A stretch of 64,000 nt of DNA, taken from positions 78,607-142,606 of the forward strand of contig JBAXXQ010000001.1 in NCBI GenBank assembly GCA_037127795.1, written 5' to 3'. The notes under the pieces are model-generated. The model made no database searches, was not told the origin of the DNA, and saw nothing but the letters and a program-made list of their open reading frames with translations. Below, one piece after another: positions 7,467 through 42,732 of the stretch (the first letter of the stretch is position 1; each line of letters begins with the position of its first letter). The stretch is from a bacterium (GTDB taxonomy: Bacteria; Patescibacteriota; Minisyncoccia; Phycocordibacterales; UBA9973). The translations under genes were made by a program, and so were the position numbers.

Positions 7467-8228
7467 ATGATAGAAGAAACACTACAAAACATAGGGTTAA
7501 CTGATAAAGAAATTCAAGTTTTTTTAACAGTTTTTCAAAATAAAAGAATTTTACCAGCACGAATAAGTACACTGTCTGGTATTAATCGTTCTACGGTATA
7601 TGTAATTGGGGAAAAACTAGAAAAAGAAGGACTTATTACTATCGATTACGGAAATAGTAGTAGATATTTTGTTGCACCTGATATACAAGATTTGGAAAAA
7701 CAACTAAAACAAGAAGAAGAAAAACTTCAAAAAAAAGAGCAGTCTTATAAAAATTTACTCAAAGAGCTTAAAAATTTACCTGTTACTGGAAAATATTCAG
7801 TACCAAAAATTCGTTTTATAGCAGAACATCAATTAAAAGATTTTCTTATTAAAGAATCAGATAAATGGGCAAAAAGCGCTCTTTTATATGATAAAACATG
7901 GTGGGGGTATCAAGACCCTACACTACTCGAGCAATATGAATCTTGGCCTGATTATTTTTGGCCAAAATATAAGAACGACATCTTGATGAAAATTTTTACA
8001 AATAAAAAGATTATCGAAAAAAAGATTAGTAAAAAGAATTATTCAGGCAAGAGAATGATTAAATTCCTTGATCCTAAAAAACATGATTTTTCTGCAACAC
8101 AGGTAGTTGTTGGAGAATATATTCTTATGATAGTAACAAGAGAACATCCTCATTATTTAATAGAGATACACGATGCTGTTATGGCTCACAATCTTAGAGA
8201 ATCTTTTAAATTAATGTGGGGAGAATAG
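7467..8228 (+). CDS. TrmB-family (winged HTH) transcriptional regulator
   Basis: N-terminal LTDKEIQVFLTVFQNKRILPARISTLSGINRSTVYVIGEKLEKEGLI matches the TrmB-type HTH; 253 aa. Confidence 0.55.
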   Translation: MIEETLQNIGLTDKEIQVFLTVFQNKRILPARISTLSGINRSTVYVIGEKLEKEGLITIDYGNSSRYFVAPDIQDLEKQLKQEEEKLQKKEQSYKNLLKELKNLPVTGKYSVPKIRFIAEHQLKDFLIKESDKWAKSALLYDKTWWGYQDPTLLEQYESWPDYFWPKYKNDILMKIFTNKKIIEKKISKKNYSGKRMIKFLDPKKHDFSATQVVVGEYILMIVTREHPHYLIEIHDAVMAHNLRESFKLMWGE

Positions 8229-12034: not shown

Positions 12035-12295
12035 ATTTTTTGTAGTATGCTATGCTATCTCTAGAACGTACTTATCTAGTGTACTACAAAAAAGCAGCAA
12101 TCTCTAAGCAGTCAGCCTACGGTTCTAAGTTTAGGCCAAGGACGCTTTGGTTCCGACTGGTGCTATCCTCGAAATATTCTTTACTTATATTTTCTAATAT
12201 CTATAAGGACTGTTTAGAGATTAGTGCTTTTTTGTTCATATATAAAAATTTTTTATATATACAAAATATCTGTATGAAAATATAGACTTATAAAA

Positions 12296-28934: not shown

Positions 28935-29777
28935 ATGAGATATGTTTGGTATGCAATAGGTATTATATTTTTTTGTATGCCGGTATATGCGCAGGCAAAA
29001 GTGTCTCCACTTGTACTATCTGCGCGCGGTGTTGCTATCTATGGATACAAAAATAATATAGAAACAAGACTGTATCAAAAAAATCAGAACAACTTGTATC
29101 CAGTAGCAAGTATTACAAAGCTCGCTACTGCAAAGGTTGTAGAGGAAACTATTTCAGACTATACAAAAATATATACCAAGAGTCCTATCACTATATTACA
29201 CGCGACTCCAGTAGACACGCTCGCACAAACGAGCTTTTCTCGCGATGATTTGCTCCGCGCATTACTTATCAGCTCGAGTAATGATGCGGCAAATAGTTTT
29301 TGTACCTTTATAGGATATACCAAATGTATGCTACAGATAAATACTTTTTTGCATGATGGTGGCTATACCAAAACAGATTTTATAAATCCACACGGCCTCG
29401 ATCCAGCTCTGCCTACAGATCCACTCAATAGGATGACACCATACAATACTATACATCTTGTGCGCGACATATATACCCACGACCCATTCCTCGCTAGTAT
29501 TCTTTCAGAAAAAGAGTCCGATATCATAGATCAAAAAACTTTTTTGCAAACACATATAATCAGTAGTAATGAAATAAATGCAGACCCGCTATACAAAGAC
29601 AAAATTATTTTGAGCAAGACAGGGCGTACCAATAGGGCGGGGGAGAATATGGTTTTTGTCACTCAAGGAGGAAAGAAATTTGATTATATTGTGGTGGTAT
29701 TTTTTGGATCTCGCAGTCGTGTTGCTGATGGAGAAAAAATCCTTGATTGGTTGGATGTAAATGATGGGGAGTTTTAG
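28935..29777 (+). CDS. D-alanyl-D-alanine carboxypeptidase (peptidase S11, PBP5-like)
   Basis: Signal peptide; SITK (SxxK), SSSND (SxN), KTGRT (KTG). Confidence 0.75.
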   Translation: MRYVWYAIGIIFFCMPVYAQAKVSPLVLSARGVAIYGYKNNIETRLYQKNQNNLYPVASITKLATAKVVEETISDYTKIYTKSPITILHATPVDTLAQTSFSRDDLLRALLISSSNDAANSFCTFIGYTKCMLQINTFLHDGGYTKTDFINPHGLDPALPTDPLNRMTPYNTIHLVRDIYTHDPFLASILSEKESDIIDQKTFLQTHIISSNEINADPLYKDKIILSKTGRTNRAGENMVFVTQGGKKFDYIVVVFFGSRSRVADGEKILDWLDVNDGEF

Positions 29778-29917
29778 GTGTTGCAAAAAGTATTCAGAAG
29801 AGTATTATTCTCTGAAATGTTTTCTTAATTTTAACGATTAAAAAAGGAGGTGCATTATTATGAAAAAAAATAATTAACGAGTTTAGTTTTTTTAAGAGCC
29901 ATAGCTTTTAGCTATAG

Positions 29918-29950
29918 AAAGAGGGACCTTTTTAGGTTCCTCTTGTTTTT
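29918..29950 (+). terminator. hairpin + T-run
   Basis: agagggacctttttaggttcctcttgttttttt. Confidence 0.5.
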
Positions 29951-29952
29951 TT

Positions 29953-30095
29953 GGTAGGGTAGGAATCGCTTCTCGATTCGTTCGAAACAAATCTCTCGGT
30001 AGGAATCGCTTCTCGCCGCTGGTGCGGCTCGAAACAAAAATCTCTCATCGAGATTTTTGCCTACGGTTCGATTCCTACTATCGAAAAACATATAA
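29953..30095. repeat. tandem (2.5x) and inverted partial copies of the 3' end (T-arm/acceptor) of the adjacent tRNA-Arg(GCG)
   Basis: ggtaggaatcgcttctcg...tcgaaacaaa(a)tctctc repeated at 29958 and 30000, matching tctctcggtaggaatcg of the tRNA 3' end; inverted ggttcgattcctac at 30067-30080. Confidence 0.7.
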
Positions 30096-30133
30096 TAAAA
30101 AATACCCACGAACGTGAGTATTTTTTATTATTG

Positions 30134-30205
30134 TCCTCTCGGTAGGAATCGAACCTACATCGCATCTTCCGCAAAGATGCGTCCTATCCATTGAACGACG
30201 AGAGG
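30134..30205 (-). tRNA. tRNA-Arg (anticodon GCG; C1-G72 first pair)
   Basis: Reverse complement CCTCTCGTCGTTCAATGGATAGGACGCATCTTTGCGGAAGATGCGATGTAGGTTCGATTCCTACCGAGAGGA: 7-bp acceptor, D and T arms, anticodon loop UUGCGGA. Confidence 0.7.
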
Positions 30206-36273: not shown

Positions 36274-36386
36274 ATAATTTAGTATATTTCTTTATTATAT
36301 AAAAATCAATCAATACAACAATATTGGTGAGATTCGGTCACGAATCACTAAATATTTTTATTCATAAAATTCTAAAAATATAAAGT

Positions 36387-36466
36387 GTTCGCGACCCCGC
36401 CTCAGCGCTGTATCGCCTCCCAGGCGCGCGCTTCCGGTTTTCTCATATCGCACATTCCGAGTAGAT
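36387..36466 (+). ncRNA. candidate small structured RNA (unclassified), GC-rich core 36387-36437
   Basis: ~75% GC over 51 nt (gttcgcgaccccgcctcagcgctgtatcgcctcccaggcgcgcgcttccgg) in an AT-rich genome; alternative cgcc/ggcg pairings; followed by terminator. Confidence 0.25.
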
Positions 36467-40035: not shown

Positions 40036-40208
40036 CAAAGCATGTAGAGCAGGTGAACTGCTTCACCTGCGAATGCTTTGTGCGGGCGCAGGTATGCCGG
40101 TAGGCAACCGAGCCGGGGTCGCGAGTACTTAGTATAAATACGATCCACCAATAGGTGGAGAAGTATTTTACTTAGTAACTTGTGACCACAAATAATTTTA
40201 AAGAGCAT
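40036..40208 (+). other. 173-nt structured inter-tRNA spacer (candidate ncRNA or processing element)
   Basis: Nested 8+8-bp hairpin caaagcat..caggtgaa-ctgc-ttcacctg..atgctttg (40036-40080), GC-rich segment with GCC-GGUA-GGC hairpin, then ccacc-aata-ggtgg. Confidence 0.3.
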
Positions 40209-42584: not shown

Positions 42585-42591
42585 CAAATAC

Positions 42592-42625
42592 AAAAAAGCA
42601 CAGATTAAATTCTGTGCTTTTTTGT
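42592..42625 (+). terminator. rho-independent terminator after tRNA-Leu
   Basis: aaaaaagcacagattaaattctgtgcttttttg. Confidence 0.75.
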
Positions 42626-42732
42626 ATTAAGTTGCAGTATAAAAGTGACTTGAACCGTAGGCGAATATTTGTAAAACAAATATTCGTTTCGAACGAAGTG
42701 AGAGGCAAGTCCTCTCGTAAATAAATACCTCT

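Follow-up and report, generated by a model that had tools for sequence, protein, structure and literature searches.

In the window, as we call the whole 64,000-nucleotide stretch analysed here (GenBank assembly GCA_037127795.1, a Patescibacteriota genome), positions 29953-30131 lie directly downstream of a tRNA-Arg(GCG) gene and contain a small, hairpin-rich, non-coding cassette, once complete and once as a half copy, whose ends are copies of the 3′ end of that tRNA. Cassettes of this kind, about 90-200 nt long and non-coding, follow about a third of the tRNAs sampled in related Paceibacteria and other genomes of the candidate phyla radiation (CPR). Across dozens of related Paceibacteria metagenome-assembled genomes (MAGs), both copies always match the adjacent tRNA. 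The element type is apparently undescribed, and a full-text literature search found no description of such elements. We tentatively favour the reading that it is a small mobile non-coding cassette which would insert at tRNA 3′ ends, duplicate them and act as a folded single strand; we regard this as a serious possibility, short of a probable one.

Followed outward, the locus starts with the tRNA and a bidirectional terminator hairpin; tRNA positions 52-65 then recur in inverted form and, after several hairpins, positions 56-71 recur as a direct copy (Table 1). A shorter direct copy lies farther out, and the window locus thus has two direct copies and one inverted copy of the tRNA-Arg(GCG) 3′ end. 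The stretch copied in the element is the segment of the tRNA from the T-loop to the discriminator, here called T; T′ denotes the inverted copy. On the plus strand, GGTAGGAATCGCTTCTCG occurs twice without change (29958-29975 and 29998-30015, 40 nt apart), and its first 11 nt are those of the tRNA gene at 30141-30151. With one mismatch or none, this 11-mer was found six times in the window against 0.46 expected, and none of 100 shuffles reached six. Within the window the arm motif is confined to the tRNA-Arg locus and to tRNA genes, and the interior motifs stand almost exclusively behind tRNAs. The arm motif is therefore not a dispersed repeat of the repetitive extragenic palindrome (REP) or miniature inverted-repeat transposable element (MITE) type. 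The only candidate for a coding open reading frame (ORF) in the element region was a 65-aa GTG ORF of low plausibility.

The original prediction, which was made from the letters of the window, had described at this place 2.5 tandem copies of a 42-50-bp unit and an inverted T-arm copy. Its repeats matching the 3′ half of the tRNA were recovered as exact copies of 16 nt and 11 nt. The inverted copy proved to be exact over 14 nt, but its true place is 2 nt to the left of the one proposed. The tandem array did not survive: Tandem Repeats Finder reported none at the locus, even at a minimum score of 30, and the sequence instead comprises a full element and 40 nt of a second, different variant. The nature of the two variants is apparent from related loci (referred to by L numbers). 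In L001, where the neighbour protein is 87% identical and the locus has 89% nucleotide identity, the same locus has one unit. L002 (neighbour protein 51% identical) likewise has a single unit, in which the outer stem measures 14 bp and the inner hairpins differ yet remain complementary. The orthologous locus of L004 (47%) is empty, with the gene, terminator and tRNA only. In the window, the proximal full copy resembles L002 in its GATGA loop and GCCGC/GCGGC hairpin, whereas the distal half copy resembles L001, and the two meet at the microhomology GAGAG(A). In the variable hairpin, L001 and L002 have different, equally complementary stems; in the B1 alignment described below, nine of ten pairs of this helix were doubly changed.

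The wider sample was obtained by a scan with the tRNA-Arg 3′ end, which is common to tRNA-Arg(GCG), tRNA-Lys(TTT) and tRNA-Arg(TCT). Taking one genome per species, it gave 76 loci, nearly all titled as MAGs of Paceibacteria, Nomurabacteria or other CPR groups, and tRNAs were called in all of them by ARAGORN. The layout was found for Arg-GCG, Arg-TCT, Lys, Ser(TGA), Leu(GAG) and Val(TAC), each with its own T-loop, T-stem and acceptor sequence. The order of parts is a terminator hairpin, GTAGGAATCGAA, 80-130 nt of hairpins and CCTACCGAGAGGAC. The inverted copy comprises the T-loop and the T-stem 3′ strand, sometimes also the acceptor 3′ strand, and the direct copy is the T-loop-to-discriminator segment, usually followed by another terminator. 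In copies of class A, GTAGGAATCGAA is preceded by an extra acceptor 5′ strand, AG, a perfect 8-bp hairpin and CGY; such copies in relatives have both acceptor stem and T-stem, while the window copy lacks the acceptor 5′ strand. The orientation of the element is always that of the tRNA. In a census of 132 tRNAs in related loci, counting copies of at least 10 nt of each tRNA's own 24-nt ends, the 3′ 24 nt recurred within 300 nt downstream as inverted copies for 33 tRNAs and as direct copies for 39. Upstream, the same 3′ end gave no inverted copy and one direct copy, and the 5′ 24 nt gave neither kind downstream. That the copies always match the adjacent tRNA speaks against a dispersed motif unrelated to tRNA, which the original prediction had named as the outcome that would overturn it. 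A role as 3′-untranslated region or insulator was considered and set aside, as the link to neighbour-gene orientation was not convincing (convergent to co-directional neighbours 21:19 with elements, 29:47 without). At a contig end in L020 (3148-3315), a single terminator hairpin is flanked by two complete tRNA-Lys genes that point towards it and form a perfect palindrome, the product of a genuine fold-back duplication or else of misassembly.

Between the tRNA-derived arms, the interiors fall into a few types, labelled B1, X, Y, A1 and Z, which recur across different tRNAs and genomes. They share a 3′ module, CGAG.GAGAT(A)AGC followed by a mini-hairpin NN-GNA-NN and then the tRNA-end copy. In the B1 consensus fold, based on 7 sequences, 87% of cells were paired compared with 74% in shuffles and 13 pairs were doubly changed; neither value was reached in 500 shuffles. 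A covariance model built from these 7 sequences (R1) found an independent copy in L048 (38 bits) and a weak full-length match in the IMG/VR contig L084 (21 bits). The variable hairpins were almost purely Watson-Crick (559 Watson-Crick, 6 G.T and 11 A.C pairs, several of the non-Watson-Crick pairs in that count belonging to the terminators of neighbours). Since the T′ and T arms had no compensatory changes, and their wobble-type mismatches no strand bias (9 vs 7), the tRNA-derived arms behave as copied, decaying DNA. In the conserved helices, wobble pairs occurred on the tRNA-sense strand only. The Z-type closing helix had G.T in all nine copies, with two further G.T pairs elsewhere and a single A.C, and the Z type kept a bulged base at a fixed position (A in six of nine) and a T.T mismatch in seven of nine. 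Position 2 of the B1 helix GUUUC/GARGC was T.G in six copies, T-A in one and C-G in one. Loops and junctions were conserved and stems covaried. Given that the conserved helices wobble only on the tRNA-sense strand, this single strand is indicated, as far as sequence can tell, to be what folds, and RNA and single-stranded DNA would fit alike.

Comparison between relatives revealed that a copy may be there in one genome and missing from another, and that copies are exchanged, tandemly stacked and mosaic. The same tRNA sequence was accompanied by different interior types, or by none, in different genomes. Flanks of L024 and L042 are approximately 80% identical, yet their orthologous tRNA-Lys genes have different variants, and the L042 variant has a near-identical copy in L024, 3 kb away. 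The two L024 copies have an identical terminator hairpin and unrelated inner stems. Tandem stacks were found in L006, L008 and L025. Furthermore, L086 and L002 are identical over the stretch that starts at the tRNA and closes with the final base of the distal copy; farther out they are unrelated. A metagenome scan with the anticodon arm gave two L002-like contigs only, and a close filled/empty pair was not obtained from it. As a separate observation, L024 has a second class-A element (7830-8000, minus-strand view) whose terminator hairpin is identical to that of the tRNA-Lys element 3 kb away. No called tRNA precedes it, only ...AATCTCCTGTTCTGGGGAC and a TATAAT box lie upstream, and its 3′ end is unlike that of the near-identical L042 relative.

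At least three further tRNA sites in the window have the same kind of element downstream, namely tRNA-Leu, tRNA-Ser and the spacer between tRNA-Arg(TCT) and tRNA-Val (Table 1). The arms of the tRNA-Leu element, GACTTGAACC (42647-42656) and CAAGTCCTCTC (42706-42716), are copies of the tRNA-Leu T-arm, and its interior is of type B1 like that of the Arg copy and nearly identical to the tRNA-Arg element of L001. An element-like stretch without an adjoining tRNA was also noticed on the minus strand at 12040-12170, directly upstream of a minus-strand gene of 332 aa; it comprises GAACCGTAGGC, a mini-hairpin GAGATAGC-ATA-GC and a 12-bp stem, TTTTTTGTAGTA/TACTACAAAAAA.

Table 1 Coordinates of the tRNA-linked elements, their parts and neighbouring features in the window
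Feature	Position	Strand	Remarks
Serine hydrolase gene, neighbour of the locus	28935-29777		
Mini-ORF MKKNN with AAGGAGG Shine-Dalgarno site	29860-29877	+	
Terminator hairpin (term2) directly after the last tRNA-end copy	29919-29952	+	Also closes the plus-strand mini-ORF unit; terminator scan; kept in L001; hairpin proper at 29919-29944
Older element, 3′ half, L001-like	29953-29992	-	GTTTCGAACGAATCGAGAAG plus 11-nt direct copy CGATTCCTACC at 29958-29968
Complete element, about 86 nt	29993-30078	-	Covariance model R1, 82.4 bits
Direct copy T, 3′ end of the complete element	29993-30008	-	16 nt, exact, tRNA positions 56-71; CGATTCCTACCGAGAG
B1 core	30007-30035	-	Helix GUUUC/GAAGC with U.G wobble and tandem G.A (CGAG/CGAG)
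Small hairpin enclosed by the B1 core	30015-30028	-	GCCGC-ACCA-GCGGC
Variable hairpin	30035-30059	-	10-bp stem, loop GATGA on the tRNA-sense strand
Inverted copy T′	30065-30078	-	14 nt, 100% match to tRNA positions 52-65; GGTTCGATTCCTAC, tRNA-sense GTAGGAATCGAACC
Palindromic A-run/T-run hairpin (term1) between tRNA and element, bidirectional terminator	30092-30131	.	19-nt arms 95% complementary; terminator scan; in the minimum free energy fold
tRNA-Arg(GCG) gene	30133/30134-30205	-	ARAGORN; Rfam RF00005, 58.6 bits (gathering threshold 29)
Z-type element after tRNA-Ser(TGA)	36325-36465	-	12-nt direct copy of tRNA-Ser T-loop and T-stem, CGAATCTCACCA, at 36325-36336
Z-type element filling the tRNA-Arg(TCT)/tRNA-Val(TAC) spacer	40037-40208	+	GGGGTCGCGAGTAC...GTAACTTGTGACC; tRNA-derived arms decayed
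B1-type element after tRNA-Leu(GAG) and terminator hairpin	42643-42721	+	tRNA plus element 42586-42721; R1, 77 bits; in the training alignment

Viral sequence collections contained next to nothing of the elements. Motifs X, Z and T′ had no match in IMG/VR, element motifs were not found among INPHARED phages, and Y-motif matches in viral collections were dismissed as chance matches inside coding sequence. Viral contigs were free of element motifs except for 3300031760_000074 and 3300021256_000079 of IMG/VR, which share 21-28 nt with the B1 core. In these two contigs (L084, 3349-3418; L085, 5146-5211), the 28-mer TTTTTAGTTTCGAACGAAGTGAGAAGCT immediately follows a terminator hairpin and precedes a gene; the B1 core lies within this 28-mer, and 21 nt are identical to L001.

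From these sequence comparisons we infer that the cassettes are, or lately were, mobile, and the steps by which they would move are inferred in turn. A cassette would insert at the 3′ end of a tRNA gene in a site-specific event that duplicates this end, and the direct copy would be the att-like duplication. In its active form the cassette would probably be single-stranded, folded and of tRNA-sense polarity; its inverted copy would pair with a tRNA-end copy and give a duplex image of the target, comparable to CTX-phage attP and integron attC, with a recombinase presumably acting in trans. Because the full copy in the window is L002-like and the half copy L001-like, and the two are joined at GAGAG(A), a newer L002-like copy may have been added next to the tRNA, pushing outward the older L001-like one, half of which would have been deleted at the GAGAG microhomology.

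Several observations weigh against mobility of this kind. Pfam searches of the genes beside the four tRNA-linked elements detected no integrase, recombinase, transposase or reverse transcriptase. No near-identical pair of genomes differing by one insertion was found, and neither a circular nor an empty-site junction was directly observed. The T′ copy covers the complement of tRNA positions 52-55, which are absent from the direct copy, and simple recombination does not explain how the inverted copy comes to match each new tRNA. The B1-type element has been kept at the same syntenic site where the neighbour protein is only 51% identical, which suggests retention and not pure selfish turnover. 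The wobbles and the U.G/U-A/C-G covariation on the tRNA-sense strand fit RNA equally well. In addition, no terminator hairpin is evident by sequence between tRNA-Arg(TCT) and tRNA-Val(TAC), and the Z element between them is for this reason probably co-transcribed with both tRNAs.

The main rival to a mobile cassette, which we consider somewhat unlikely, is a structured non-coding RNA of tRNA sense, produced by read-through or co-transcription, whose central domain would be functional and whose spread would be secondary. Its ends might imitate acceptor and T-stem, so that RNase P, RNase Z and the CCA-adding enzyme could excise it; alternatively, its antisense arm could pair with the tRNA 3′ half. 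An RNA would account for G.T pairs that occur only on the tRNA-sense strand, for the covariation in the conserved helices, for loops and junctions conserved while stems covary, and for the Z-type helices with their bulged base at a fixed position and their T.T and A.G mismatches. It would also agree with the constant orientation and with the Z copy at 40037-40208, where a terminator hairpin is not evident. Class-A copies reproduce a complete tRNA topology, running from an acceptor 5′ strand through 2 nt, a hairpin, 3 nt and the two T-stem strands (5′, then 3′) to the acceptor 3′ strand and the discriminator, and L045 has a compensated acceptor-like stem, CCGCTCG/CGAGCGG, unlike that of its tRNA. 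Nevertheless, in most loci a strong bidirectional terminator stands between tRNA and element, and a separate promoter would have no space. The variable stems are almost without G.U and the T′/T arms decay uncompensated; elements occur sporadically, and at orthologous sites one type is exchanged for another. Nor did Rfam 15 offer a family: at gathering thresholds the window and 16 loci returned tRNAs only, and in E-value mode, a permissive setting, the elements gave chance-level matches only, for every interior type.

The integration scars proposed in the original prediction would require that integrase-bearing islands or prophages repeatedly entered the tRNA 3′ end and were then deleted, leaving partial copies of the attR type. 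Since tRNA 3′ ends are classical integrase targets, the idea is a natural one, and part of it stands: the direct copies look like insertion-type products at a tRNA 3′ end, repeated through the base after the discriminator; stacked copies occur, with two generations visible in the window; and synteny between L086 and L002 breaks at the distal copy. We nevertheless judge it improbable. No integrase lies in the neighbourhood, and in none of the 76 loci did direct repeats enclose a kilobase-scale island; apart from further tRNA genes, every direct repeat lay within 350 nt of its tRNA. The inverted copies are left unexplained, as classical integration, to our knowledge, yields none. Moreover, the repeats enclose a structured family that is conserved across different tRNAs and genomes, which random remnants would not be, and its X, Z and T′ motifs were unmatched in IMG/VR. 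Least likely of all, in our view, are local replication accidents without any mobile unit, in which fold-back or template switching at the palindromic terminator, together with slippage, would make first the inverted and then the direct copies. Such accidents would agree with the single long palindrome that tRNA end, term1 and T′ make up around the terminator loop as its centre, as well as with the perfectly complementary variable stems, the joining of the half copy at a microhomology and the whole inverted tRNA-Lys around the terminator in L020, though this is at a contig end. They would, however, leave unexplained why interior motifs are conserved across different tRNAs and distant genomes, why each element type starts at a fixed tRNA position and why near-identical variants occur at non-orthologous sites.

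A broader proposal, to which we give only guarded credence, would hold whether the cassettes work as DNA or as RNA. Here, tRNA-tail cassettes may be a new class in CPR bacteria: ORF-less, modular, folding as single strands and using an internal inverted copy to rebuild their target, the T-arm and acceptor 3′ end of the tRNA. As folded DNA they might integrate, for example by means of a host recombinase once natural transformation has brought them in; as RNA they might dock to the adjacent tRNA or mimic it.

Other candidates were rejected. Inspection showed a T-stem that cannot form and inner loops of 3-5 nt, and ARAGORN called nothing; this is at odds with a pseudogene of a tRNA on the plus strand and with a tRNA that is permuted or contains an intron. 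Motifs of tmRNA, T-box, C/D-box and hammerhead RNAs did not fit on inspection. In an IS110 bridge RNA comparison, both arms cover one tRNA segment and pair together, and the recombinase is absent; IS91 GTTC targeting, IS200/IS605 and casposons leave an intact tRNA with an inverted copy unexplained. For a true integron attC, the arms are copies of the tRNA T-loop (GGTTCGATTCC), position 4 of GTTRRRY does not fit and no intI occurs among the neighbours. Group I introns of Patescibacteria, the subject of the one paper on tRNAs of this group that the literature search found, sit in tRNA anticodon loops and are unrelated (PMC13011429).

The tRNA itself conforms to its description. Both ARAGORN and Rfam support a minus-strand tRNA-Arg with the anticodon loop UUGCGGA, hence anticodon GCG, and an acceptor stem CCTCTCG/CGAGAGG with first pair C1-G72; CCA is not encoded. 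The idea that its anticodon is a local oddity was not borne out, as tRNA-Arg(GCG) was present in roughly 45 related loci, a sample biased by the picking of loci through the 3′ end of this very tRNA, while anticodon ACG was absent from all 150 called tRNAs. With the same bias in mind, tRNA-Arg with G34 (GCG) appears to be the standard CGN decoder in the sampled Paceibacteria MAGs, and the missing tRNA-Arg(ACG) hints at life without TadA-made inosine. The source DNA has a G+C content of 35-40%, and more distant homologues of the neighbouring serine hydrolase are named Nomurabacteria; together with the gene content, this points to a CPR genome of the Paceibacteria type. The MKKNN mini-ORF with its Shine-Dalgarno site and following hairpin terminator, also reported earlier, was found where expected. 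Upstream of it lies a promoter-like TTGCAA-16-TATTAT (29781-29808), and downstream a 6-bp palindrome and its own terminator. This plus-strand unit (29781-29952), almost identical in L001, where the peptide is MRKNN, might be a very small transcription unit, or else a leader for which no downstream gene is obvious. Elsewhere in the window, G+C falls to 0.28-0.33 between 46000 and 52000, with strong positive GC skew and successive ORFs on the plus strand; the DNA there may be foreign or encode surface proteins.

If mobile, the cassettes would be a very small type of tRNA-targeting element, with target recognition apparently held in its own sequence and not in a dedicated integrase gene, and abundant in genomes that are otherwise minimal. 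They would bear on DNA exchange in CPR bacteria and on tRNA 3′ ends as universal insertion sites. If RNA, they would be a widespread, uncatalogued structured family tied to tRNA expression in a phylum whose RNA biology is already unusual. Should the cassette class hold true, it would imply programmable tRNA-specific recognition, not described for bacterial mobile elements or small RNAs. In practice, partial tRNA copies behind tRNAs in CPR MAGs should not automatically be taken for prophage att sites.

Among known systems, the att duplications of tyrosine integrases are alike in that an intact tRNA is followed by a direct repeat of its 3′ end, which runs from the T-loop to just beyond the discriminator; stacking and the synteny break are common to both. 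Here, however, the unit is only 90-200 nt, lacks an ORF or integrase, has an additional inverted copy and possesses a conserved structured interior that serves at least six different tRNAs. MITEs, REP and bacterial interspersed mosaic elements (BIMEs), Correia elements and RUP are likewise short, ORF-less, hairpin-forming, multicopy and polymorphic in presence, but the elements described here are tied to the tRNA 3′ side instead of being dispersed, and their end sequences are those of the local tRNA; we know of no matching transposase family. Plant mitochondrial t-elements, mascRNA-type mimics and tRNA-derived short interspersed elements (SINEs) share the mimicry of acceptor and T-stem beside real tRNAs, a putative substrate of RNase P and RNase Z. 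In our bacterial elements, by contrast, the T-loop is replaced by its complement and a large domain is inserted, and most copies stand behind a terminator. The attP(+) of CTX phage and integrative mobile elements exploiting Xer (IMEX), and integron attC, resemble the cassettes in keeping structure over sequence, with fixed mismatches and extrahelical bases. The target here is the T-arm and 3′ end of a tRNA and not dif or attI, there is no GTTRRRY core or cargo gene, no IntI or Xer partner is known, and the single-stranded active form is presumed. The layout of target, hairpin, inverted copy, element and target copy, with tandem accumulation at a regenerated site, parallels that of CTX phage (PMC3442271) and attC (PMC2727003). 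Established knowledge of these systems, extended by our own reasoning, suggests that this layout would be expected as the product of single-strand hairpin integration.

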